A DNA stretch of 62,254 bases, the filler included, from Rhizaria sp. SCN 62-66 (Eukaryota): assembly GCA_001724265.1 (NCBI GenBank). It is 7 parts of 7 records of this genome, joined end to end, with 100 filler letters (N's around TTAATTAATTAA, not from the genome) between each part and the next. Parts side by side here need not be neighbours in the genome. Positions count along the whole stretch, not along the records: positions 23,318 to 31,967 come from MEDY01000596.1; 6 more parts are not named here. One strand, given 5' to 3'. Both the position numbers and the translations under genes were made by a program. The notes below the pieces were generated by a model. That model was not told the DNA's origin. It did no database searches and worked only from the letters and a program-made list of their open reading frames with translations. Below, one piece after another: positions 6,076 through 39,983 of this stretch. Positions within the stretch are counted from its first letter, which is position 1; each line of letters starts with the position of its first letter.

Positions 6076-7326
6076 TTAGAAGGAGTTCTTGCGCTCTTCG
6101 ACGACGGGGCCGGGGCCAACCGAGGACACGAAGAGGTTGTACACCTTTTCGTCGTCCTTGGTCTTGAGCTCGCCGTCGACGCCCACGGCCTTGACCCAGG
6201 CCTCGGGCACCGCGGGGGCGGCCTCGCCGCGGCCGACGTAGCTCAGCTTCATCGGGTCCGCGGCCCAGTCGGCGCCGGCGGCCTCGGGCTTGAACATCTT
6301 GGTGACGAGCGAGAGCACGAGCTCCATGTTCTCCTCCAGCAGATACAGCACGGCGTTGGGTCCAGCGTCGTAGGTGTATGCCGCCACAGGGGGCTTGTCC
6401 TCGGCGGCAGCCAGCGCGTTGAGCGCGTGGATGACGGCGATGATGCGCTTGGAGGCGGCGTTGAGGTAGAAGATGGGCGGGTAGGTGTCGAGGCAGACGG
6501 CGTGGAACTGGTTCGAGTCCTTCATCGTCTCCTCAGCAAAGGCCGCGAAGTCCTTGGCCTTGATCGCGGCCTCCATGCGCTCCATGCGCGCCGGCACGAC
6601 GTTCTTGATGCGGTGCTGCAGCAGGTCCGAGGTCTGGACGGTGGTCTCCATACCCGAGGTGGACGGCACCTCCTTCTGGCCGCCGTGCGCGACGAGGATC
6701 AACACGCGCATCTCGGGCCAGTGCTGCTCGTCCGCGACCTGCACGGCGTAGGAGTCCGCGCCGTCGGCGCGCGCGCCCTGCTCCCACTTGACCCAGCCGC
6801 CGTAGAGCGAGCGGCAGGCCGAGCCGGAACCCTGGCGCGCGATGGAGCTGAGGTCACCGTCGAAGGTCTCCTGGACGTTGAAGACGGTGGCGAGGCACTT
6901 GGTGAAGCAGGCGAAGCCAGAGGCGGAGGACGCGAGGCCAGCCGCGGTAGGGAAGTTGTTCTCGGAGATGATGCGGAGCTTGTACTGGGGCCAGTCGGCC
7001 TTGGCGATGAGCACGGCACCCTCGTCGGAGAGGAAGTCGCCGGCGCGGGCGCGGAGGGCGGACAGAACGGCAGAGAGACGCTTGGAGCCAGCGATGTTCT
7101 CCTCCTTGCCGTTGAGGGTCATCTCGTCCTTCTCGAAGGTCTTGGACGCGATAATCGTGGTCTTGGAGCGCATGGAGCCCTGGTGGATGGTGCCCGAGAG
7201 CGAGGAGTTGGTGGGCAGGATGAGCTTGCTGTCGCGCTTGCCCCAGTACTTGACGACGGCGATGTTCACGGGGGCGGTGCACGTAACGAGCACGGCGTCC
7301 TTGGGAAGGGTAGCGTCGAGAGGCAT
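6076..7326 (-). CDS. MVD: Diphosphomevalonate decarboxylase
   Basis: Motifs APVNIAVVKYWGKRD, NNFPTAAGLASSASG, ARQGSGSACRSLYGG, DSNQFHAVCLDTYPPIFY, YTYDAGPNAV. Stop TAA. Confidence 0.97.
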   Translation of the reverse strand: MPLDATLPKDAVLVTCTAPVNIAVVKYWGKRDSKLILPTNSSLSGTIHQGSMRSKTTIIASKTFEKDEMTLNGKEENIAGSKRLSAVLSALRARAGDFLSDEGAVLIAKADWPQYKLRIISENNFPTAAGLASSASGFACFTKCLATVFNVQETFDGDLSSIARQGSGSACRSLYGGWVKWEQGARADGADSYAVQVADEQHWPEMRVLILVAHGGQKEVPSTSGMETTVQTSDLLQHRIKNVVPARMERMEAAIKAKDFAAFAEETMKDSNQFHAVCLDTYPPIFYLNAASKRIIAVIHALNALAAAEDKPPVAAYTYDAGPNAVLYLLEENMELVLSLVTKMFKPEAAGADWAADPMKLSYVGRGEAAPAVPEAWVKAVGVDGELKTKDDEKVYNLFVSSVGPGPVVEERKNSF

Positions 7327-23217: not shown

Positions 23218-23606
23218 NNNNNNNNNNNNNNNNNNNNNNNNNNNNNNNNNNNNNNNNNNNNTTAATTAATTAANNNNNNNNNNNNNNNNNNNNNNNNNNN
23301 NNNNNNNNNNNNNNNNNCCCCCCCCAAACGATGTTCGTCTGATTTGAAGGATACGGGTGGATAATAGTTTTGAGACAAAAACACGAAGTGAGATTATGAC
23401 AAGCACAGTAAAACGCATCCAACAGTCCGCTTCGGCACATACGAAAAAGAATCATTAAAGGACTGATTTTGTTTTGCAATCGTAGGAACGATCACATTTT
23501 AGAAATAGGGGAATTACTACGGCTGCGAAGCCCAACAGTGATAAAAAAGAAAAAGAGGTCATCAGAGTATGCTTGATTTGCTGACCTACAAGCAAGTAAA
23601 CATAAG

Positions 23607-25568
23607 TTAAAATTGACCAGATTGGATCTTAGGATAATAAAGCGTCTCGTGCCTGCGGTAATAGCTGCGCTGAAACCGGTTTAGACTTTTGAAAAATGCA
23701 AGGTCCTGTGGCGTCAGTTCAGGCGCAACTAAAAGAAGTCCGTCAACGTCGATACCCGCGTCCGACAACGGCGGCAGCTCGCCGTAGAGCCGCGCGCGCT
23801 GCAGCTCTTTGCTCTCCTACCCGTTAGTGTTAGGCCGGTAGTGCATGCTGTCGGCGCCAAGATTGGGCATCGGCGCGTACCGCGTAACTGTGGCGTTGAG
23901 GAAATCAATGCCGTCGCCCTCTGTGGTTAGGATTTTATTTGCGCCGTCGCTGACGTAAACAAGGAGACGCGCAGTATTTGCTTGCACCAGAGGGCCTTGG
24001 GCGCGCGCGCCAGGAGTCGAATGCTTCAACTGGCCATAGGCGCCGACAGCTGTCGGAATACGGTGGAAACCGACACCGCGTTGAATGCGTCCCTGAATGA
24101 TGTTGTCCTCGGCGCCCCAGCCCCAGATGTCGTTAGGAAAACCCTTAGACTTATCATCGACTCCGGACGCAAATACGCCACCAAAGTGGTGACCAGCCGG
24201 GATAAAACCTTTGTTCTCGCGCGCTGGCAGACCTGTGCAGTAGTGAACAGGCAGGCCGTCATCGGCGAGGTCGTACTTGTTGAGCAGCGAGATGGGAAAG
24301 ATGTCGACGTCATGCGCAACAAAGTAGTCATAGCCCCACTTGCGGGCCACGTGCGCAGCAGCGTTGAACAAAGCGCCCTTGTTGAACGCAACGTCGTAGT
24401 TTTCTTGTTCAATAACGAGCAATGCGTAGTCGCGACCTGGAACTTTGCCAATCTGACGCAAATGACGGTCCATACGCGTGATAAACAAGATCAGCTGTTC
24501 CGACCGTTCCTGCCTGAAGATAGTGATGTTAGTTGCCGGGTCAAAGACCTTCTTGCCAAACTGGTGCTCACGGAATGGAATCACGACAAGCATTTTCCCA
24601 CTTTTTCCCTGCGATGTAAGATTCTTATGCGCAGCGATGACTTCCGGTGCAAACGGGTTGAACCGTGTTGCAAACGCAGGCATCGTTATGTTCTTGAGAG
24701 TGAACTTAGTGTTGCGAGGGAAACGTGGCACCATGCGCGTCACCTTATGCAGAGCGTTCATTGCACGCTTGCCCTGAGGGTTGGTCGCCAACATCGCGGC
24801 GCTGGGCTTAAAACTCGGTGGTGACAGCGTGCCCGTGTACGGCACTGTAGGCAGCGCGCCATAGCGCCGGTGGGATACGCGTTTGGAGGTCGTTGTTGCA
24901 TTAGACGACTCTGTCAATGTTGTGTTGCCCGTTGACGCTGCTAGAGGAAAGATGGTAGCGGAGACTGGGCTGAAATTGGGAGAAAAGGCAGGAGCAACTC
25001 CATAAAGGGTGTTAACAGAGCTCGTCGTCTCGAAAGCCATCCGAGCAAACATGCGGCGCCCATGGTTGCTCGTACTCTCCCAATCCTTGCGATTTGAATT
25101 GGCATCGAAACTGTTGGTGAGATGCCCAGAGAGCGACTGTGGTGCGAAGGTGAAGCCTTCTGCGTCGGACATGCTATCATCCTCACGGACACTATTAGCG
25201 TCACCGTCAAAGTCAGCGCTATCAGCATCGTCGTCGTCGTTATCGGATGAGACAAGGTTGTCCTGGCTTCGTACAACAACGATTTCGTCGTCATCGAATG
25301 TTGTAATTTCCCGTTGGTCGTGATTAAAATCAGGCAGAGGGTTGCTGCTGTGTTGGGTGAGGTGAGCCTGCAAGACGGGTGCGCGCACTATATGGCGAGA
25401 GTGCAGCAAAGTCACACCTTGATAGTACATGTAAATGTAAATGAGGAGGTAGACGGCGACAACGACTCCGCGACTGCCCCACAACGACCGTAGCAGGTTG
25501 CGGAGTTCGTCGTCACCTGTGCTGTCGAAGTCGGCGTCGCGAAAGCCAAAGGTGCACTTTCGCCTCAT
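23607..25568 (-). CDS. GT7 (beta-1,4-galactosyltransferase-like) type II membrane glycosyltransferase; in-frame TAG at 23817-23819
   Basis: N-terminal TM segment (VVVAVYLLIYIYMYY). GT7 motifs VVIPFR, IEQ...FNKGALFN, YFVAHDVD, FGGV, GFPNDIWGWGAEDN. After the TAG the frame stays open for 69 more codons (ESKELQRARLYGELPP...QSGQF) to TAA at 23607. Confidence 0.85.
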
Positions 25569-26041
25569 GAAAGCGGAAAAGCACTCCGCGAGCGCAACCT
25601 AAACAAACCAGAACCAATCCGCGTGACAAACAAAAGAGAAGTGAAGAAGAGCTGGTGCGCCACTGCATTTTGATTTGGCGGATTGTGGGTCAAGAACAGA
25701 GAGATTCGGCACATGGCAAGAAAATCAATTAAATTAACCACAGATATACGTGAAATGCACAAGACAACTGCGGCCGGCATCGACAATGAATGAAAGTGAC
25801 AACGCGCGATAAGCAAAGACAGATGAGCGGAACGAAGTAGACTAACAGGATTACTCCTTCTTCAAGCGCATCCTCACTTCGCCAACTGGTCACATTTTCG
25901 GATGTGGTTGTTTGGGGATATTCTCTTCGTTATATCGTTGTTGTTCTGGGCAATTTGAGCTTTTAATGCTATACTATCCTAACATTTCGTATAATTGTTT
26001 CACAACTACTCGTTTCGTAAGGCAGCAGTGACGTTCTAAAC

Positions 26042-29000
26042 ATGTCCCAGGCGTCATGGGACAATGCACCTGCCGATCTCGAACAACCGCACCGCATACG
26101 TGGCCGAATGGCACTCTTCTTTTTCTGGGGTGCTATTCTGCTTGGTGTGGGGTTTGTTCACAACTTTTTCCTGCAGAGGCAAATCTTCTTGACGAGATTT
26201 TCGCTTTTCTCCGACTCGACCATCCACAACAATCAAACAGTTGACAACGCTGAGAGTGCCGACGGTGATGCAGCTGTATCATTTCATCCTGATGCTAAGA
26301 CAGGGATAAATATTGTTTCTCCTTTTCCTGGTAGTATGCCTGTATCTGCGCGCGACTTCGGCGCCACATCTCTTTTCGTGCCTGATAAAGTTGCCTCACA
26401 ACTCTCACTGTCGCCGTTTCTCGACGTATCGTGTCCACTCTGCTTCACTTCTTCCACTGCACTGAACCCTAATGTTGCAGATGCACTTGCCGCGACATGT
26501 CCACTACCTACCCCTGTTCCAGCACATACCACGCCCATTGACCCGCCGCTGCTTTGGCATACTCACAACGGCGTGTCGCGCCGTCTCCTGCCGCTCTCAC
26601 CCCAAAACGCACATTTGCCGCTTGACCCCGGTGTGTGTCGGCAGTGCTTTGTCCCATATGCGCCACCGACTGCCGCGGCGACTGTGGGCGCTGGTAGTGC
26701 CGAGGCTGTGTTGGAAACATACAACATGTGCCGTGTCCGTGCAAGCCAAGGCCTTGCTCACAATCATAATTTTGGCTAGAGCGAATATTTTTTGTCTCCC
26801 AGTGACGACAAATTGAAGCGTACAGACTCCGATGTTGATCATAATGATGATACCGATGACACCCTTGATGCTGATCTTGACATTGAGCCAGGTGATGAGA
26901 ACAGTGGCGGAGTCAGTAACGGTGAGAAGCTCTCGGGCTGGGTTTCACTCGACGGCTCACGGTACCCTGTATCTGCGTGCGTCGAACCCATGGACTACGT
27001 GTTCCTTTGGGTCAACGGTTCAGACCCCGTTGTTTCTGCTGCGCGTGCGCGAGTTCTTGAGCAGGCGAAGCAAGCTGCTGACAATGCACGCGCAACAAAT
27101 GAGTAGAGCGAGAGTGTGCCACCCCCGAATGACAATGCTGATGCGGCGGCAGCGTCCATGTTGAACGATGACATTAACGCACGCAAGGCCGGTGACAGTG
27201 CCAACAATGCTTCTGAAGATGTACCTCGAGCACCCGTGGCTCCTCCATCCGGGTTTGTCGAGAGCAAATTCTCAACTGGTGAGCAGCGCTTTCGTGATTT
27301 AAACGAGTTGAAATATGCGATGCGCAGCGTCTACGCATACGCGCCCTGGGTGCGCCGCCTTTATCTTGTGACATCTGGCGAGCATCCTGTGTGGCTAAAC
27401 ACGTCACACCCACTCGTACGGCTTGTGCGTCACGAGGATATTGTTTACAATCCGGCTGTTAACGCGCCCGCATTCTCGTCCAATATGATTGAGACCGGTC
27501 TCCACCGCATCCCCGGGCTCTCTGACAATTTTATATACTCTAATGATGACTTCTTAATCACTAAACCTGTGCCTCAGTCTGCCTTCTGGTCACCTGAACA
27601 TGGAACTCGGTTGGAGCCTTCTTATCGTTATGGGTCACTCGCCAGCAAGATAACGTTAATTGGTGACGGGCTTTGTCATCCGGCGTGTATGGGTGAGTTG
27701 ATGCAGTATGATCTTGGCGATTGTGAGCGGAACTATTTGCGGGCACCTGCTGCTTGGGAACTTTATGATATGCTGCTTGTGCTTTCGCAGCAGATGTACT
27801 TGCGAGCTCCTTCAGTTGATGTGAAAAAACTGCCAAGTTACGAGCCACTGCCGGAGCGAGTCCGTGTTAATATCACAGCAATCAAAAATTTCAGCAAAGC
27901 ATTAACTAAAAAGACTAAGGATGATGGTTCTATTGCGAATAGATCATTCACGATGACTCTGGACGGGAAAACTCATGGCTACGTCACGCTTGGTTTGTAT
28001 CAACAGAACATCACATTTGGTCCAACTGATCACACAGCGTTTGTCGCGTACAACAAGCTGTCGCGTCGCCAGCAACGCATGAGCAAACGATCGCCGCCGA
28101 CTTTGTTTGCGCCGACTTATGGTGCGCGCTCTTTTTTTAGCAGTGAGAAAAGCAAAGATCCCACTGACATCTTTTCACCGCTCATGCACCCTGTGCTCGC
28201 CCGCGTTGCGCTTACTGGCAGCCACCTATACGCACATGCCTCTTTGCTCAACGAGTCTGTCTCGATTGCAGAACTCATCATCACGACGCCTTCGGCCGCT
28301 TCAGAGCCCGCGTACTGCGCGCCTGGCTGCCCCGCGTCGTGGGCTGGCGACGGCGTCTGCGACAGCACATGCGACGTCGAGAGCTGCGGCTGGGACCGTG
28401 GCGACTGTGTGCTCTCGCCTACTGCTGCTGGCGCTGCGATTGCGGAGATTGTAGCTGTTTCTGCTGACCGAACCGCGCGCGGATATATTTCAGCTAGCGT
28501 TGATGCCGCTCGTGCTGAGCAGCACTCGCGCGTCAAACGGCTAATGCTCAAGCAGTTGCGCGTGTCTCAGCTTGCTACCGCATTGTTAGAAGACATTGCG
28601 CGCTCTAATGTTGCTGTGTGGTCTCTACGTAGTGCTGCAACCGTGCATAGAACACCTTCTGTAAGTGAATCGCCGGTTCAACCCAACGATGACAAAGAGG
28701 CTACAATACTTATTAGTGATAAGGCGCCTGGCTTGGACGCAAAGGATTACCCTAACGATGTGTCAGCTTTCTATGTCACTGCAATGCCCATTCAAGACTC
28801 TGCTCATCCGAATGTCACCAAAGATACTTGCTACCCAGCTGGCTTGTCGCTGCAGTTGGCACAGGAATGGGTCTCCGCAGTGCTCGCCGAGATGTACCAC
28901 AACAGGCCTCACGGACAGCGGTTTGACGCTGACGTTGACGCGCTACAACGTGGGGCCGGTGTTGCGGCTGCACAAGCTGCTGCGTCCGAGTATGCAAACG

Positions 29001-30445
29001 CATTGCGGAAGTTTCGTGACGACGAGAAAACGAATTTGAAATCTGGCAAGAGCACACACGGACGCGAGAGCCAGAGCGCGGCAGATGATGACATCAGGAA
29101 ATACGAATTCTATCCTAATCTCACGACAATCAAAGCGCACCGCGCTGTTCGTCTGCAATTGGTATCGTCGCTGCAGTGGCCGACGGCCAACAACGCGCAT
29201 CCGTCTCAAGTTCTGTCCGTGCCTGTATCCGTCACGCCGGGTGCGTGGTGGTAGCAGATAGGCAACTTACCGAAACGTTTGGCATCCACGAGTTGGACTA
29301 CTTTTGTGCGTCGCACGATGGTTACGATGCGCAAAATTGTGGTCAACACGATCGCCACAACAATGCCTCATGTCCCAGTATCTCTTAATAAGCACGTTTA
29401 CGCGCGCATGCAGTACTTAGCGCGACATGAGTACTCCAGTACTTATTCAGCTCGTTTCCGCGGGAGAGGAGACATGCAATTCGCGCAGGCAATTGTGTCA
29501 TTTACTGCCGGTGCGCGCCATAGCTCTGTTGAGTCTGTAGCGGAGTCGCTGCTAAGTCATCACGACGCGGACTGTGATGGTACCGTGCGCGGCACTGAAG
29601 TGCGCTCACTACTTGTGGATCTGTTTACGACCCCAGCTGTGCCACCGGCCACAGCCCTCTGCATGCGCGAACAGCGCGCGCCGTGGGCTGTAACCGCGCC
29701 GCTGACGCGACCGCCGTGCAATTCAGAGCGCGAGGCTGCAGTCTCGCGCCGGATTGCCACGATGACAACCAAGAGCGAGGGCGACAGCAAGTTGCGGCCG
29801 TGGCACCTCCGGTGCGTTGCAAAGGGGGCAGTTCAAGGCAATGATACTGATGATGACGCAGTCTCTGCATGGCATGCGTCTGTTGCTTCCGCGCGCACAT
29901 TGCCAACGTCAACGATTCACTCTCCTGTGTTGATGACCGCACTGACACAAGAACCCCTCCTGAGTGAGCTATTGCGCGCGACACCATGGCGTGAATATGG
30001 TGCTGACTCGGCAAAGTCTACTGAAAAGCGTTCCTCAAACAACAAGGACCGTGGCACTGACGACGCAAACGATAGTGACGACGACTTGAGCAGCATCGAC
30101 TATGACGAAGACAGTCTTGTTATCACGCGTGCTGACCTACTGCAGTGGACTCTGAGTCGTGTTGCTCTCCAAGAAGTCCAACTTTTACACAGGCCTTTGT
30201 ACCAGAGGAACTTGAAGACAAAACAGGAGCCTTCAACATGGCGCTATGTTGCGCTTACAAACAAACTTTTGATAAATACTACTGAGCTAATGACGTCTAT
30301 CGCGCGCAATCTCGCGGAAAAGAAAAACAAATTGTTCACATGTATCAACGACGACATTTCAGATTTACTCCCTCCGGGTTTTGTAAGTAATGTGACAGAA
30401 GTTTTTGAGGCAAAGTTCGCGCGTAAAGCGCCGTGGGAACTGTGA
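26042..30445 (+). CDS. GNPTAB-like / Stealth-family GlcNAc-1-phosphotransferase, single frame with three in-frame TAG codons (26777, 27104, 29252)
   Basis: Four track ORFs share one frame and are separated only by TAG. In order they encode the TM anchor, Stealth CR1 (PMDYVFLWVNGSDP), CR2 (RFRDLNELKYAMRSV..APWVR..LVT..P.WL...FSSNMIE..LHRIPGLSDNFIYSNDDF), LNR repeats (CAPGCPASWAGDGVCDSTCDVESCGWDRGDC), CR3 (PHVP..LNK...RFR..DMQFA), an EF-hand-like DADCDG..TE and CR4 (FTCINDD...F..K.PWEL). Stop TGA. Confidence 0.92.
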
Positions 30446-31871
30446 TTCAAGACAACACGTCTTATGATTGTAGTGTATCGCTGTTAAACTCTACGATTCT
30501 GCGGCTACTTAAGCAGAATACCTGCATAGCGTAAAGGCGAAGGAAGTTGTTTTTTGCTCGTCAGGATTTATGTTTTTTTCTGTTTTTTGTATCAGCTAAC
30601 AAGCTATTGCTTAAATTTCTCGATCCAAAAGTTTCTTGACGACTAGTGAGCATCGTATTTTCGTACATGTACACGTCCGATGTTAGTTGTGGCTGGCGTA
30701 ATATATTCTAAATTGCACGTTTCTCGCGCTTTTCGGATCACTAGGTCTGTTAGATATTGCTCTATAAGCTAACTAGTAACGTGCTTTTTTGTTGTTGTAG
30801 TACTGACTATTTAAGTACAAGGATGGCATGACATTCTTACCCCGAATACACTGCCAAGCGTTTGAAGCATCATACGTACGTATTATATTTACAGAAATCA
30901 CTTGATGATGCGTTCAACCCCCCCCAAAAAAGAGAAGAATATTGTCTCAGTATCGTCGGAGCAATCTAGCAATTGTTGTTACCATTTACGAAGCACTGTA
31001 CGTACGTCTACAGATTACGGTCACAACATCACCGCTGTGTTGCATTTGACTATGATGAGAAAGTATGGACAACACCCTGCTAGTTGCAGGACAACTTAGT
31101 TGCAAACCCACAGCGACAAGAGCGACAACGCCACCGATTCTGACGACGAGAGTGACAATGACGACGACGAGAACGACATCGAGATCGAGGAGAAAGTAGA
31201 GCGCGTCGAGAACGGGGTCGACGACCTTGGTCACCTCTCGCACGAGGGCCGCCTTGTGAAAAGCAACGTTGTCCACCCAAGAAGGCTCGGTGACGCAAGC
31301 CACTTATCTATTAATACAAGCTAAACCCCATCAAATCTGTGTAGATCGCATGCTCATGACGCCGTGACCTTGGGAGACAGCGTGCAATAATCACTCACAA
31401 CAAAGAGAAGCTTGAGTATCAACCCTTGCTGGACGTGCGTCTGTTACTGAGGGTCGTATGCGCTCCCCAGAGGACAACATGGCAGCCATCTCGCGCGCAA
31501 ACGAGCTCATGAGCCACTCTAGCGCCCACTCGCTCCCTGCTGCACAACATGCTTCTGCAGCTGCTCCGTCGCACCAACAGTGCCTCTCCCACCTGTGTAG
31601 GCAAGGCTGAGCAGGCAAAAAACAGTAAGTAAAAAGACAACCACATGGTAATCGAGTTTTTATTGGCCGAGAATTGATAATCAAATATATAACTCACATA
31701 TTCATTTAGTCTAACAAATTTCACCAATAAATATATATGTATCAATCCAATTGTATTACAAAATCAATTTCCACCGCAAATTTGTTTGGTCAACTACGGA
31801 TATTTTAGCCACAGCTACGGATATTTTGCCCGCAGTAGTAAGAACAAATTTGAAGACACAATGTTATTATA

Positions 31872-32213
31872 TGTTACCGTCGACATTCTGCATAAAATTC
31901 CAGTCGACAGCTTTTGCCGGTCGCGATTTAAAGGTGGCGTTTCTTGTGTATACACACTTCGTTTTCCNNNNNNNNNNNNNNNNNNNNNNNNNNNNNNNNN
32001 NNNNNNNNNNNTTAATTAATTAANNNNNNNNNNNNNNNNNNNNNNNNNNNNNNNNNNNNNNNNNNNNATATACTTGGTTCTTATTGTTTTCATAGAAAAA
32101 GAGAGTCTGTGTTCACAGGAAAACAAAGTGTGTATACACAAGAAACGCCACCTTTAAATCGCGACCAGCAAAAGCTGTCGACTGGAATTTTATGCAGAAT
32201 GTCGGTTGTGACA
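31872..32213. mobile_element. Pair of 96-bp inverted repeats (31872-31967 and 32118-32213) flanking an assembly gap; putative transposon termini TGT...ACA
   Basis: CGACATTCTGCATAAAATTCCAGTCGACAGCTTTTGC...GTTTTCC is the reverse complement of 32118-32204 with 2 mismatches. The outer ends read TGTTACCGT and TGTCACAAC. No transposase is visible. Confidence 0.6.
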
Positions 32214-32580
32214 ACAGTGCCGGTGTCTCATGGTTTTATAGAGTTTCATAAAACGTGTTGTAATGGAAATTGATCCAATGTCTCTTTATGTGCTCTTTTG
32301 TGGCCGTACGGTCGTAGTTAGGGGGAGAGTCGACAACCTCTTTCGATCGACGATCAGGTTCTTGAGCTAGTTAACTTGTAGACATGATTTCAAGACTTAC
32401 ATGGATAGCTCATCAACAATTGGACCACTTACCCTGTTTGCTGTTTCCTCTTGCAGCTTTTCTGGCATTTCATATTGTCAAACCCTCCATTCGAGCTTTT
32501 CGAGCATCGCTGCTCACCACAACGAACCTGCACATCTCATTCGGGCTCTCAAGTCCCTTACTCAGCCTCATTCCGTAAAC

Positions 32581-35500
32581 ATGTTCCGCTTTGCGTTGTC
32601 ATGGGCTGTCGTTGTATGGTTTGTGCTGTTCACCTTCGTTGAGAACGCAGTCGTAGTCGCCACTGGCCCAACCAACACAGGCCCCGTTTTCAGTACGACA
32701 CTCATTCCTGCATCTACAGTCTGCTATCCAGCACTCGGTTACACATCCGTAACACTTGCTATCACAGTCTCTGGCCTTGATGCAACTACGAACACAGCTT
32801 TAACCTTAAGCTGGTCTTGTCCGTCTCTGTTGCAGCAGCTCAACCTCACCACGACGTCGCTCGTCACTACCTCCAAGGACTGCCTCGACGACGCGGCCCT
32901 GCCCAACACTATACGCTGCACACGCACCACCAGAGCTGCGCTTACTATTTCTGATGTTCGAGTACATTTTTCCGCGTTTCCAGGCTTTAAAGAGTCTGCG
33001 AGCGTTCTCTCGTCGTGTCTTGGACTTACAGCCAACGGTGTAGCAGTCTCAGCCGATGCCTCAGTTGTCGACACGCTGTTACTGAAACCCCCGCTGACCA
33101 AGCCTACTGTCGCTTTGCTGCGCGACGACAACATATTTGTTGACCGCGCTACTAGTGGGACAGCTGACAGTGGGATCCCGCCCACTGGCAGCCACACTGC
33201 GGCACTCGCTGTGAGCGCGATTCTAACTGCGCGCACGGAGGGCGTCATTGTACTCGCAGTTTTGCTTGAGCGCCACGGTCAATTGGAGTACGATATGACG
33301 GCAACCAGTGTTTGGATAGTTGATCGTAAAAACCGAGAAGCTCACACGACCGAGAAGTGTGCCATCAAACGCATTCCTGGTGCGCGCAACATCGAACTGC
33401 GCTGTCTCGACTTGCCTATGGGTCAACTCAATCTCCGAGTCAGTCCAGTGGTCCTTCGAAGCAAGACAAATATTGACAACATCGGTAGTATTGGTCTTAT
33501 TGGGCGTGTGATGCTTGCTTTAAATGGCAAAACTCAAGTTGCAACTGTGGTTGGCGCTCCCAGTGATCGCGGTGACGACTCCAGAACAACGTATAGTTCC
33601 ACTGATCGTGATGGCGGAACTCCACAGCAAATTTCATCGGCGCGCCCAGAACACATGACAACACAAGCGTTGCCTTCTTACAGCTTGATCTCTGGCTCCA
33701 GTGATGGGACTGTGCGTCGTAAACCTTATGACGAATGCGAGTCAGCTGATGAGAAACTCAGCCCTATTTACAGGCACAGGAGCCGTACTTTTGATCTTAA
33801 TACTGAAGATGTCGACAGGTTTGAAACCCTTGCTAAGTTGTGTGGAACTGTGACTGGCTATTTCCAATTCGAAGTTTCTTGGACTTGGGCACAAGTTCAA
33901 GCATACAGCTTAGATGGATTAACTCGTACGGGGAATCTCATTCTTCAAATTGTGTTTCCACAAGCACACTCAACGGCAATGATTGACATTTACTCAGAGC
34001 CAACATGTCCGACGTCGCTTGACTTTCACCTTGCAGAAGGGGAGTACGATATTGCCATCGACGCTAGCAGCACTCAATACCTCATGTTGATTGCAGATCC
34101 TAACATCTACGAGGGAAGATACTATTAGACGACCATCAAGAATGTCATTATCACATCTGCATCAGCGTAGCTTTAGTACACAATAAGTAGCAGCTGCGTT
34201 CGTTTTGTAGATCTTAATTATCCCCAACCCATAGCTGTTGCCTACGCTCCAGAAGATCTGAACCTAGACCCAACGAACGGCTTAGAACCTTCGATCGGTT
34301 TTGACTTCGATATCTCCACTTACAAAGGTGTTTACACACTGTCGCCATATACTGACTACGACAACCGTTTTAACCGTTTACTCTCTGTTAATATATCACT
34401 TAGGGGAATGCGTCTGGGCACGATGATACCCGCGCCTGGTGCCATGACCATTAGCCTAGCTGACACGTGTATGGGTACTTACACCATGGCCCTGTATGGC
34501 GTTGACGAGCGTGTATCAAGTATCACTATTTCAACTCCTTCTGAAACAATGTTTTTATTTCCTTTATTCACGCTATTTGTTCATCCTTCCAACGCGTTGC
34601 CGCAAATCTCTATGAGTTGTTTTCAAATTATGTCGGATGATGGCACTGAAATGCTACCAGCTTTCGAGCTCACGGAGCTGCCATCCGACAAAATCCCACA
34701 CTTTATGAACTACCACATCACTGATGTGAGTGTTACCGGCGTTTTTTCGCCTGAAGATTTCTCATACTCAATCACACGCGAGGTTTCAGTATTGCCAGGT
34801 GCTGATACGATGGTAGGTGCAGCATATATGCTCGCGGGTCGCTTAGACTGCTTCTGCCCCAATGGATCACACTCTATTGAAGTTCCTGTTTTAGAAGCAG
34901 GTACGGAGACGCTAGTTGACTGTGTGGTCCAGATTCAGAATGAAGAGATGATTCTATTTTACTGTGTTGACTCCATGTCAGCCGGAATCTGGCATAAGAT
35001 GATTTTTAAGTGCAGTGGTGGATTCACCGAAGCTATTTTAGATGCGTGTTTTAACGATGGAAATACTGACGAGGTGAGAATTGGTCTGCCGGTTGATTCC
35101 CTCACGGTTGGCGTTGACCACTTTGATACTGTGCAGTTCATGCCGGCCAAAGGCATCCTTATCGGATCTGTCATAACCTCACGTGCACTTGCAAACAACA
35201 TCATAGATCCGCTCTCTGTGATGGGTAAACCGACAACTGTAACAATTACAGTCTATCTACACGTTCTTGCACTTCAAACGTCTATTTTTACCCTATCCGT
35301 TTATTTTAACAGCAGCATGTTTTCCTTGATGTCTCAAACCATTGTGGAGGCTGGGCCAGGACTAATTGCACGCTCGACAATTTTGGCGCGATTAGTTGTG
35401 CTTTTACATCTCGCACATTTCTTAATGAGGACGGTGTAAGTAGCCTACCGACTATTATTCTCCGGGAGGTTCGTGAGCCTAATGGTCCTGTTGTTGAACC

Positions 35501-38500
35501 TTCGGCATCCATGGTTATTTGTGAGGTGTCTTACACAACATCAGAATCAATGCTACTCATTAACAGCGAATCTGACATAGCTTTAGCGTTCTATCCTTAC
35601 AGCACAGCAACAACGGTGGATATTGGTGGTAATTTTATCGATAGTATCACAATCATAATTATACCGCTTTCGCCCCAAGCAGCACGAGTTCCACTTTTTT
35701 TTTCCCCACGTGATCAACAACTCGTTCTAGGAAAGACACTTTCTGCGACTACCAACAATATGTATGCAACAGTAAATGCATCAATTGTAAACTATACTAC
35801 AATTCGCATCGACATGGACGAAATCCCGTCGTTCTTTGGGAGTGCCATATTCGTCACGGGGAGCGATGTTTTGTTTACTGATCAGAGTATGACTATGTAC
35901 GAACCATTCGGCTTTAGCGCTACGTATTTTCACATAGCTGCAGGATCATCCTCATTCATAGCAACTAGTGACACTCAGTTTGGTCCGTACGTAGCCGCCG
36001 AAGCGTATGACCCAACAAAGTTCACACTTACCGCGACCTCGGTTACTGCAACAGATATTTCCACAGCCCGCATACGAAGGTTGACATTCAATTTCGCTAC
36101 AGTTATGGGTGGTAATGGAGGTAGCAATATCAAGCTTCGCCTGAGCACAACCGGTTGTAATGTTGACTTTTCAATGGCAACTATCTCAGGTGCATCACTA
36201 GCATTAGCAGCGATCTCCAGTGGACTTATCTAGTTCAGTGTCCCTCAAGCGTGTACCAAGGGCAGCGCATGTGGTGCTATAATCAGCGTCGTTTTTGTCA
36301 ATGCTCCTGCAGGTGCAGTAAACTGGCCTCACACCATCTTAAAGTCATGCTTTTCAACACAGCTCTATTCCTCCAGTTCAGCTGTCGGAGAAACGGCGAA
36401 CGCAGATAGTGACGTGAAACTCTATGTCACTAGCGATGATCTGCCTATGTACACGATTGTTAGCGACACTAATCCTGTGCCTCCAACGCTTATGACGATG
36501 TCTCCTAGTACCAGTTATTCTTCGCGCTATGAAGGCTATTATGTTTCGAATCCGATCAACATCATCGGCGTTAACTTCGTTGGTCGCACGGACAAGTCAT
36601 ATACTCTCTCTGTTCATAGCTCGTGCATCAGTTGGTTAGAACTGCAAAATGACGCAGGTGTGCAAGTAACATCAACCACGTTTAACATGGACTTTACTGT
36701 CTATGACTTTACGGTTGTATCGACTTTCCGAATCCAGCTGCGCCAAAACAAACCAGCAACATTTCTTAGCATGTGCATTGTTCTCTCGTTGACATCGCCA
36801 ACAGCCGTTATTAACCCAGTCTCTACATCATATGCTAATCAACTATCATATTTACCATCGTTCTCAATTGGGCTTGTTGACACAAAATTAGTATCACTCT
36901 CAGAAGAAAAAGCAGTGCTCAGTGAGTTTTCACTCACATATGAGCTTAACATCATTCTCCCTAAGGATATTTCGTTATCCACGGGCATAGTCTTTGCTGC
37001 TACTCTTGACGATAACTGCTTTTGCCCAGTCCTGTCAGACGCTTTGCTTGTGACTTCTGACGCGACGCCTTACGGACAGAAGCAGCCCACTGTCGGGTCC
37101 AATTGCTCATTTTCAATTACTGAGGCACTAATTGAGGTTTACTGCAGCAGTTCAGTTCCGGAACTAAACTGGTTCTCGTTCAACCTTGTTTGCGCAAGTA
37201 TCTTTTCCGCAGAGACTCTTCACAAGTGCGTTCCTGATCTCGCGACCAAGTCCATTAAGATGTCTTTCGACGGCGGGGCAGCAGTTGATGCCTTATCCGA
37301 CTTTTACAACGCTGGGCCAGAGGTATTTCTTTCCGCGCGTTACATTCGCTGCCAAACCAACATCAACAGAGATTAAGAAATACTGTTCCATGGTTTCACT
37401 GAGCAATCGGACCGAGTGCCAGGTACTACTGAGCAAGGATGCCGCCAATACGTTTGTTATCGAGGACATTGCAGGAACAATCGCTAATAGCTACAATCTT
37501 TTCGGCAGCGGTGCTGTTGCAGTCTTGGTAACAGGCACAGTGAGGGTCACCGAGGTTTTGAAGCAATGGTACGCGACATCTGATGAGTATAGCGGCGACT
37601 ACTTCAGCTATTCAGTCACCGGCGCCAATCCAGTCGCGCTATACAGGACGATCCGATTCACGCCTATTGTCGGGTTAGTCGCGCTACATCCCGCCTATAC
37701 ATTGGTGACTACGTACACAGTTGAATTTGCTTCTACGTGCAGCAACATTATGATTGGTGATAGCTCAGTAGCAATTCTACCGGCTCGTGCTGCGCCTGGC
37801 ATCGGGCTCATGACCATCAACTCAACAAGCTTCACTATTTCAACAGGATCCAATCTCGGCGACTTTGCCGAGTTTAATGGCACCAACGCTGCGTTTGTAT
37901 ATCGCGTGGCATACGCACCATACCTGTCCACTGGTCTGCCCGCTCCGTGTTTTAAGGCTGGTGCGGGGGCATACATCCCAGGTGTTTCGCCAACGAGTAA
38001 TGTCGGGCCGTTCCCGACCGCTGGCCCGCTACAACCGTTATTTCTAATTGTGCCCGTGGGTGTTAGTGTAGAGTCAGATCAGCCCGAAGATACTGTCTAC
38101 AATCTTAGGCTGCTTATCATTCCACGCTACTCTATGCCAACGAGCATCTCAATTGTCATTACATATGATGAAGTCCGGTGTCCACTAAAGGGTGAAGGTT
38201 TGTTCTTCGGTGAATTTTCGTATATCTATGATGTAGCTACAAGTCGTGGCTCGTCGCCGTATACGAGTTGTTCAAAGTTCCCGACTGGCTCCAATCGTAG
38301 CTTTGGAGTAAAGTGCTTGGGTAGCTTTGATACAGCAACACACGGAGACATTTTTTTAACCATCAGCGGCCTCGTTATTGCGCGCACGAGTACTCATTTT
38401 ACAAATAGGCTTGATGGCACGTGCTTCACTGCGTCCATTGAGCGTATGACCGCAGGGTACCCCGATGAAGACACACGCGCAATGACGGGGAGTTTTGTAA

Positions 38501-39882
38501 TACCGTCGTTCTTGAGTGTGCATCAGTCAACGGTATTTGACCATGATGCCAACAACAACACAGGGATATCGATGGCTGTGCTGTTGGGTGCGGCCCATTT
38601 CTCTCCTTTGAGCAGTTGTGAATTCGTGTTTGACTTCCCAAAAACACGTTTTGTTCCCACAGACGCGTGGATTAATCTTCAGAGAGCTATCGACAACACA
38701 CCGCTTCTGGTAATGCCGTCTGGTGGCGTAGTTGGGAGCGCGCTCAACTTGTCAGTGCTGGCACTGTCAGACGTGTGGTGCAATGTACACTCACCATCCC
38801 TTCTCGTTGACGGCTGCTGGTTTGAGTCAACAGGTACTGTGTCTACCACAGCGTATTTGCGCACCGACGTATTGTTTGATCACACAAACATCTGGGTTAA
38901 TAACACTGTGAACGGTGTCAACACAAACGCACTCGCGGGCTTTGTACCTACGCGCCAACTGCCGCTTGCGGCGCAGCGTCTGTCGGCTAGTTTGATATAC
39001 ACGGGCCTCGATTTAGATCCTGCCAGTCTTGGCAATGCAGGAATTACGCTTGTGCTGAGGTACATAACAACTTTTCTCACAACAGCCAAGCATATCATCA
39101 CGCTTCCAAGCACGTTGTCTTATTTTTCAACAAGTATGAGCGGCACTGGCTATGACTCATTTAGTTGCGCCAGTAATATCTGCACAGGCCAAGCGTCAGT
39201 TGACACGATATTTACAATCACAATCGCTGGGATTGTTGTATCGACCGCACCATACGAATTGTTGCGTGCTAACATTGCGATTTATGACGCGGTTACGGTT
39301 CCGGGCAACATTTCTCTTTCAATCGCCGCGTACGCGGCACCGGAGCTGCGCGCAATTGAAGGATATGAGCCTACAGACAGGTTGATTGCGTACAGAGCCG
39401 TCCAGTCTACCGTCTCCTTTTTGGGACGTATTTCTGGCCCTATGCCGCCATATAATGAAGATTACACCGTTAGCGTTACTGGCTCTGGCGGCAGCTTTAA
39501 TCTGACGTCGCGAGTATCACTCGCGTACACGCGCATCTTGATCTAGCCCACTGCAAATTTTAATGTCAAAATCGCGGTAGATTCGCCCCACCTGCTTGCC
39601 GGCGGGTCCCCTACGCTTAATAGCATTGCCGTTTTCCGGCCCGGCACGCCGACTTGTACGGTTCCAGTTGTCGCCAATGTTGCATCACTCGGGGATTGCT
39701 CAGGCTTTCCACAAGACACCATCGTCAACCTGGAGATTACCACAGGGCACACGCAGCTTCCCGTGCTCCCGGTTTGGATTGAAGTGCTGCTTGGCAGCGA
39801 TAAATTTGTGCGCTTCCCAATCAAGCTGCCAACGACTCCGCTCCCATTGACCATTTTGTCTGTGACAGAACCGGTTCCTGAA
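32581..39882 (+). CDS. Large secreted/surface protein, Ser/Thr- and Cys-containing, beta-rich, 3' truncated; five in-frame TAGs and two apparent frameshifts
   Basis: Signal-peptide-like MFRFALSWAVVVWFVLFTFVENAVVVA. ORFs link in frame across TAG at 34126, 34168, 34174, 36231 and 39544. Frame changes occur near 35310-35436 and 37320-37370. The frame is open to the contig end. No family recognised. Confidence 0.65.
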
Positions 39883-39983
39883 NNNNNNNNNNNNNNNNNN
39901 NNNNNNNNNNNNNNNNNNNNNNNNNNTTAATTAATTAANNNNNNNNNNNNNNNNNNNNNNNNNNNNNNNNNNNNNNNNNNNNG

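Follow-up and report, generated by a model that had tools for sequence, protein, structure and literature searches.

The window analyzed here is a stretch of 62,254 nucleotides from Rhizaria sp. SCN 62-66 (assembly GCA_001724265.1), in which assembly contigs were chained with N spacers. Contig C596 (positions 23318-31967) carries, at 26042-30445 on the plus strand, the gene of a Stealth-family phosphotransferase resembling GNPTAB, with the conserved regions CR1 to CR4 in a single frame that is interrupted by three TAG codons (TAG1 to TAG3, Table 1). Translation of this frame gave 1467 codons from an ATG start to a TGA end, with no TAA and no TGA other than the terminal one; the remaining two plus-strand frames across the same positions hold 38 and 95 TAA and TGA codons. 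These counts confirmed what an earlier note on this DNA had claimed, namely one frame interrupted by TAG at three positions and neither a frameshift nor a TAA or TGA over about 1467 codons. The interpretation developed below is that this uncultured rhizarian, which is most likely one of the sainouroid amoebae, probably uses a nuclear code in which UAG encodes Glu and UAA and UGA are stops.

The Stealth-family gene and its TAG codons

With TAG translated as X, Pfam found CR1, CR2, LNR, CR3, and CR4 in this order, CR2 and LNR above the curated cut-offs and CR1, CR3, and CR4 below them. Alignment with the solved GNPTAB and eight homologues placed catalytic residues on both sides of TAG3. By an inferred numbering offset, R416, S480, E484, and N501-D502-D503 of CR2 correspond to human R322, S385, E389, and N406-D407-D408, and H1110, R1140, Q1146, and N1436, which follow TAG3, to human H956, R986, Q992, and N1151. 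H1110, R1140, and D503 (H956, R986, and D408) were invariant in all nine aligned rows, as were D542, C545, C549, D557, D560, and C561 of a degenerate first LNR-like motif. Functional roles of the GNPTAB active-site residues are described in PMC9388126. The earlier statement that the conserved motifs are intact holds for the catalytic set but not for two substrate-contact positions (H959 is V1113 and N1153 is D1438). The N-terminal anchor proposed at the same time was judged by eye, and the EF-hand could be recognized by alignment (D1175 and E1186 are invariant among the aligned rows) although it received no Pfam call.

The protein stops right after CR4 and lacks a C-terminal transmembrane segment, so it does not show the two anchors of GNPTAB; its paralogues P0001 and P0002 also stop after CR4, and P0004, P0005, and P0019 run into a hydrophobic tail. 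Because of the missing tail and the changes at H959 and N1153, we regard it as a GNPTAB-like Stealth phosphotransferase, and the name GNPTAB itself is too specific. In comparison with GNPTAB (7s05, 7s6n; PMC9388126), it shares the order CR1 to CR4, the LNR, the EF-hand-like loop, the N-terminal anchor, and all the active-site equivalents listed above, and it differs by the missing tail, H959V, N1153D, one degenerate LNR, and no DMAP hit. The argument that CR1 to CR4 must reside in one gene product needs care, as GNPTAB undergoes cleavage and two chains make up its catalytic domain (PMC9388126). The gene very likely encodes one intact phosphotransferase and is not broken, and by homology the enzyme would most likely transfer GlcNAc-1-phosphate from UDP-GlcNAc to a glycan of the secretory pathway.

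The best two database matches of the enzyme are paralogues from its own genome. The paralogue on contig C376 is intact and without TAG. In the one on C531, a TAG falls between CR1 and CR2, and the database protein P0002 is truncated for this reason, which illustrates how gene callers cut such proteins short. This Stealth/LNR-like family is expanded to at least six loci (with L080-L085, on C376, C531, C554, C657, and C81), in which the CR3 motif is altered relative to GNPTAB; the C81 locus is highly divergent and has a TAG inside its CR1-like motif. The enzyme is an ordinary member of this expanded family, and the finding is the code.

The TAGs of the Stealth gene are not assembly errors, because further DNA runs show them. 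A contig from run X3 spans TAG1 and TAG2 (26140-28744) with 0 differences, TAG3 also lies inside an X3 contig with 0 differences and a shorter flank of 27 letters, and an X4 contig over 28112-29775 has four differences, none of which, among the rows listed, is at TAG3. A strain difference at 30136, the one listed in-gene difference that was checked, is synonymous. As had been claimed, no GTACGT or GTAAGT donor was found near the TAGs, although weaker frame-preserving GT..AG cuts do exist: six for TAG1, one for TAG2, and, for TAG3, a single cut of 21 nt that would remove a WW pair kept in three paralogues. Removal of TAG1 by splicing could in principle occur. In the homologue alignment all three TAGs fall within variable linkers and therefore cannot identify the residue. 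With TAG1 conceivably spliced and all three in such linkers, the description of this gene as the strongest single proof of a code change was overstated; stronger evidence comes from a tRNA with anticodon CUA, stop-codon usage, and TAGs in eRF1 and in a Stealth CR1 column.

Table 1. Positions of features on contig C596, counted along the window (aa, amino acids)
Feature	Positions	Strand	Basis or remark
Family-7 glycosyltransferase, divergent from the Stealth gene, same contig	23607-25568	-	Pfam
Stealth-family (GNPTAB-like) phosphotransferase gene	26042-30445	+	1467 codons with TAG as sense; TGA end; contig C596
N-terminal hydrophobic anchor, ~aa 23-43	26108-26170	+	translation, judged by eye
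TAG1, codon 246, variable linker	26777-26779	+	same in DNA run X3
Stealth CR1, aa 315-330	26984-27031	+	PF17101, E 5e-4; alignment
TAG2, codon 355, between CR1 and CR2	27104-27106	+	same in X3
Stealth CR2, aa 416-521	27287-27604	+	PF11380, E 1e-37; alignment to 7s05
Degenerate first LNR-like cysteine motif, ~aa 540-561	27659-27724	+	homologue alignment
LNR (Notch) domain, aa 758-789	28313-28408	+	PF00066, E 2e-9
TAG3, codon 1071, directly 3' of WW pair	29252-29254	+	X4 and X3 contigs span
Stealth CR3, aa 1110-1154	29369-29503	+	PF17102, E 3e-3; alignments
EF-hand-like loop, ~aa 1173-1186	29558-29599	+	aligned to GNPTAB EF-hand region
Stealth CR4, aa 1430-1467	30329-30442	+	PF17103, E 7e-3; alignment

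Stop codons, a tRNA with anticodon CUA, and eRF1

Stop usage was sampled after 406 coding cores (221,447 codons in 950 kb, ~2.7% of the genome). The first stop-like codon was TAA in 87 cases, TGA in 65, and TAG in 2, and the rare sense controls TTA and CTA came up 10 and 8 times; both core-ending TAGs look intronic or non-coding. With TAG read open, all eight gene ends checked in the window are TAA or TGA. UAA and UGA still terminate here. In-frame TAGs were found in conserved exons of eRF1, three kinases, a Ubc6-type E2, SUV3, a PARP zinc finger, and an ankyrin repeat, and also in Stealth paralogues. Among 142 kinase matches, TAG was the only stop type in 9, TAA in 1, and TGA in 0; some of the 9 TAG-holding matches are intron ends, and domain TAGs at L071, L078, L161, and L184 were dropped as intron acceptors. 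Coding-like sequence on both sides was seen for TAG in 58/1383 cases, for TAA in 0/856, and for TGA in 8/6639, counts that include antisense matches and are supporting only. Most of the 40 further TAG stretches scanned with Pfam had no domain over the TAG. The earlier claim that TAG is a sense codon is upheld by stop usage, by the tRNA with anticodon CUA, and by the conserved-exon TAGs, and we hold it to be very likely for the genome.

The tRNA(CUA) gene was located by pattern search and ARAGORN on contig C84 near 76,000 (L165:1489-1561, minus strand). It scored 58 bits in Rfam, has all four stems paired and a short variable loop, and is flanked by eukaryotic Vps39 and formin genes, with a T run at its end, from which we conclude that it is nuclear and eukaryotic. 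In a comparison with the 23 other tRNA types retrieved, which did not include tRNA-Asp, it was closest to the tRNA-Glu(CUC) of the same genome (47/73 identical), followed by His (40) and by two tRNA-Gln (33 and 29), and the UCCCA/UGGGA acceptor ends are common to tRNA(CUA) and both Glu isoacceptors. A separate Rfam tRNA search, which scored 63 of 506 candidates, missed it, and its minimum-energy folding was not distinctive (z -1.5). No UUA tRNA was present among 19 UUC/UUA pattern matches, a search that found Glu(UUC) and misses intron-bearing and long-arm tRNAs; a DNA search for tRNA-Gln gave five matches, all of them known Gln(CUG) loci. The gene was not found in viral contigs, and it matched one phage tRNA-Glu only partly. 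From its body, tRNA(CUA) would probably be charged with Glu.

Two features of these tRNAs were observed in addition. tRNA(CUA) has A37-A38 and G73, both Glu tRNAs have A37-C38, and A36-A37-A38 is an isopentenylation context. The D-arms of the tRNA-Glu genes (L179, L239) are unusual (GTATAG and GGATAA), and tRNA(CUA) has GTCTAG, the more typical form.

The termination factor is altered as well. The GTS loop of eRF1, which is GTS in 119/120 homologues, is GSS here, and NIKS is preceded by YSK instead of GT after F, Y, or L, which amounts to the changes T32S, G57S, and T58K; L69 and S70 are unchanged. The nearest relative (P0028, 84% identical) keeps GTS and has T58K in common. T32 touches the G of UAG, and it is T32G in the UAG recoder Iotanema and not in its standard-code relatives, according to the accounts in PMC5304391 and PMC9161772. 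These changes suggest that UAG recognition by eRF1 may be lost or weakened. The gene itself is strongly codon-biased, yet it contains an in-frame TAG at the position of human E107 (L001:1596, minus strand, contig C63), which is identical in the assembly record L191 (unspliced DNA); its three introns measure 134-292 nt. A UAG inside the eRF1 gene might act as a feedback loop on the level of the termination factor, a speculative and doubtful proposal. In the foreign eRF1-like loci L209, L210, and L212, TAA or TGA follows right after NIKSRV with an apparent frame change; these loci are possibly from frameshifting or recoding ciliates.

In the mechanism that we propose, a tRNA-Glu would have become tRNA(CUA) by a single anticodon change, and tRNA(CUA) would decode UAG and be unable to pair with UAA. 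The altered eRF1 may let UAG escape termination wholly or partly, and the result would be one membrane-anchored Stealth phosphotransferase of 1467 residues with a complete active site.

The residue assigned to UAG

Evidence for Glu comes from conserved columns at several TAG sites. At the eRF1 site, the 114 matched sequences among 120 homologues have E in 103, D in 10, V in 1, and Q in 0. In the Stealth column before the CR1 motif, 4/4 members from this genome have GAA or GAG and a fifth has TAG. The Ubc6 column holds D in 98, E in 14, and Q in 1 of 150 sequences, the Q being the query, and human SUV3 has D at the corresponding TAG site. Summed Pfam bits over eight sites were highest for E (543.0), followed by Q (540.6), K (540.5), N (540.3), D (539.0), S (535.0), R (534.8), A (534.1), Y (525.9), L (522.2), and W (520.1); the sum was made by hand for these 11 residues and excludes L076 (no match at threshold) and L185 (36.8-37.2 bits). 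In Q-rich tracts, TAG was counted 3 times, as compared with CAA 240, CTG 51, CAC 32, CCG 27, CAT 27, AAG 18, CGG 15, and GAG 15. Since it is rarer than all these one-step neighbors of CAG, TAG does not behave as a synonymous CAG transition. CaMK structures have A, K, and Y at the TAG site of L011, which is uninformative, as was a frame-blind polyQ scan. Tests based on neighboring residues returned P, V, H, and F, a meaningless outcome of site lists contaminated by antisense frames and introns, and were discarded. The protein evidence would by itself favor E over Q several-fold, and the tRNA body raises that ratio. We therefore read UAG as probably encoding Glu, a residue for which the earlier note had given no assignment.

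Several observations weigh against this interpretation or limit its support. RNA run X5 contained three short pieces of the Stealth gene, none bridging a TAG, and run X7 contained none, results that in themselves favor neither side. TAG is rare, with at most 95 occurrences within cores, many of them intronic. tRNA(CUA), of which a single copy was found, has only 64% identity with tRNA-Glu, and tRNA-Asp was not among the tRNAs compared. T32S retains the hydroxyl and may leave UAG recognition intact. At the TAG column of eRF1, P0028 as the closest relative has V, and one of nine foreign loci has Q. The Pfam margin of E over Q, K, and N is no more than 2.4-2.7 bits. Four or five TAGs lie within polyQ tracts. 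In the ubiquitin-S74 fusion gene L088, both TAGs stand opposite Gln of close copies, one of them in a well-conserved half; over the whole, 27 changes are synonymous and 8 are not. Finally, the lineage was derived from one gene on another contig and a quick tree.

The alternative that survives best is that UAG encodes Gln, or a mixture of Glu and Gln through partial mischarging of the Glu-bodied CUA tRNA, in which case the gene would equally be intact. It is favored by the two CAG-to-TAG changes of L088, in its conserved ubiquitin domain and a neighboring repeat, by the TAGs in several polyQ tracts, and by the second place of Q in the Pfam sum, 2.4 bits behind E; Gln is also given as the commonest UAG-only code in PMC11687900. 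On the other hand, the sole CUA tRNA found is Glu-like, the tRNA-Gln search gave only Gln(CUG) loci, and Q is absent or nearly so in the columns of eRF1, Ubc6, and Stealth CR1. No mutation arises more easily than CAG-to-TAG, regardless of the meaning of TAG, the TAGs in polyQ tracts remain below non-synonymous neighbors, and two further Gln positions of the L088 ubiquitin are also changed; even so, the L088 TAGs count as genuine evidence against Glu. We consider this alternative unlikely.

Much less probable is a different residue (Asp, Lys, Asn, or Leu). The Ubc6 column most often has D, which human SUV3 has too, K and N are less than 3 bits from E, and the acceptor end of tRNA-Asp is similar to that of tRNA(CUA). 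For Leu there is the precedent of exLh, a member of the same group (PMC5304391). Against these residues, Leu lies 21 bits and Asp 4 bits under Glu, and E prevails at the eRF1 and CR1 columns. Moreover, CUA is two changes from the GUC of tRNA-Asp and one from the CUC of tRNA-Glu, and the short variable loop of tRNA(CUA) is unlike that of tRNA-Leu. A shade less probable again is leaky suppression, in which eRF1 would still terminate partly at UAG and the full-length enzyme would be minor. The single tRNA gene found, the very low use of TAG, the conservative T32S, and the unchanged L69 and S70 fit such leakiness, but TAG ends cores in 2/154 stops and is present in eRF1 and three times in the Stealth gene. 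The standard code, with unrecognized introns, a recent pseudogene, or an assembly artefact behind the TAGs, is scarcely credible: weak frame-preserving cuts lie near every TAG, several TAG hits elsewhere were intron acceptors, no RNA piece crosses a TAG, and redundancy is possible because the C376 paralogue is intact without TAG, but the TAGs were seen in separate DNA runs, there is no frameshift, TAA, or TGA, the catalytic set is complete, the TAG3 cut of 21 nt is far shorter than the eRF1 introns and would delete WW, and the tRNA, the eRF1 TAG, and the stop usage would be left unexplained.

Neighboring loci, lineage, and comparison with known codes

The family-7 glycosyltransferase gene contains a TAG at 23817, after which 69 further codons lead to a TAA. 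It lies head-to-head with the Stealth gene across a gap of ~470 bp and is partly repeated elsewhere in the runs, with a depth peak at 23900-24470; a shared glycan pathway of the two genes is possible. The contig ends in a high-copy repeat (31120-31967), the summed depth of which reaches 720 in X4. At 32230-39930, three overlapping long frames with 7 TAGs encode a beta-rich, probably secreted protein without Pfam domains; in composition they resemble the rest least (r 0.38), and the changes of frame point to introns or frameshifts. On contig C681, L088/L188 is a long open reading frame that repeats internally and encodes two domains, a host-like ubiquitin and a Peptidase_S74 chaperone, and it looks derived from a virus or mobile element. 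The ubiquitin genes seen (L086, L089, L090, L093, and the window from 8140) are single units with an MSMQIF start and a GG-HPQ end, and no head-to-tail polyubiquitin was found among the loci read; the extra N-terminal residues are reminiscent of the rhizarian junction insertion.

Placement of the organism came from a mevalonate diphosphate decarboxylase gene (6076-7326, on another contig), the nearest named match of which is Guttulinopsis vulgaris (65%). A quick tree of this one gene, using 56 of 120 matches, put it in a 12-row clade with G. vulgaris (SH-aLRT 100), within a clade that is mostly rhizarian by its named rows. By this marker, the organism most likely belongs to the Sainouroidea. 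That C596 comes from the same organism is supported by the assembly, the paralogues, and the shared use of TAG. Tetranucleotide correlation of C596 with the rest was 0.60, within the genome's own range of 0.52-0.93, a weak test because a foreign GC-rich locus scored 0.85. The eRF1 homologues and the ESM Atlas gave no lineage placement, and a metagenome scan yielded a single piece of unspliced DNA, identical in sequence, and nothing closely related.

UAA and UAG are nearly always reassigned together. UAG-only nuclear codes reported in PMC11687900 assign Leu (exLh and some ciliates), Gln (Iotanema and three ciliates), or Ser (Scotinosphaera). Within the Sainouroidea, UAG apparently still serves as a stop in Rosculus sp. 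and probably does so in Guttulinopsis, going by PMC5304391. Our literature search, which covered few subscription journals and no supplements, found no UAG=Glu code with UAA as stop and no second sainouroid code. We lean towards regarding UAG=Glu with UAA and UGA as stops as a new code in a group whose only known recoder reads Leu, and the Sainouroidea as a second hotspot. If true, one codon would have been captured twice in this group by different tRNAs, or switched between senses, and there would be a hotspot of code change outside ciliates and an additional translation table. Two meanings of UAG in the Sainouroidea would make codon-capture and ambiguous-intermediate models testable. A genome with a CUA tRNA and eRF1, which was lacking for the rhizarian of Panek et al., is now at hand, and the group includes described, isolated members; Rosculus is reported as highly active in sewage (PMC8827150).

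The most similar system is exLh (UAG=Leu with UAA and UGA as stops; PMC5304391), which belongs, by the single marker tested, to the same protist group and has in common with the organism studied here the change of UAG only, the UAA stop, and a predicted CUA tRNA. It differs in that its eRF1 has L69A, whereas here L69 is unchanged and T32, G57, and T58 are changed, and in that its UAG is read as Leu; here Leu lies 21 bits below Glu, the tRNA is Glu-like and has a short variable arm, and use of UAG is very rare. Iotanema spirale, Hartmannula sinica, Trochilia petrani, and Protocruzia tuzeti also keep UAA as a stop but read UAG as Gln (PMC11687900, PMC9161772), and T32 is changed both in Iotanema (T32G) and here (T32S). 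Phyllopharyngean metagenome-assembled genomes from TARA (UAG=Leu) and Scotinosphaera (UAG=Ser) likewise stop at UAA, with another residue and lineage. UAG=Glu is known together with a reassigned UAA, namely in peritrich ciliates (PMC11687900) and Blastocrithidia (PMC12153298), where both UAR codons encode Glu, and in Oligohymenophorea sp. PL0344, where UAA encodes Lys (PMC10553269); unlike in all of these, TAA is the commonest stop here and no UUA tRNA was found. The CUA tRNAs of PL0344, which are 69-93% identical to tRNA-Glu (PMC10553269), are nevertheless a precedent for a CUA tRNA derived from tRNA-Glu.

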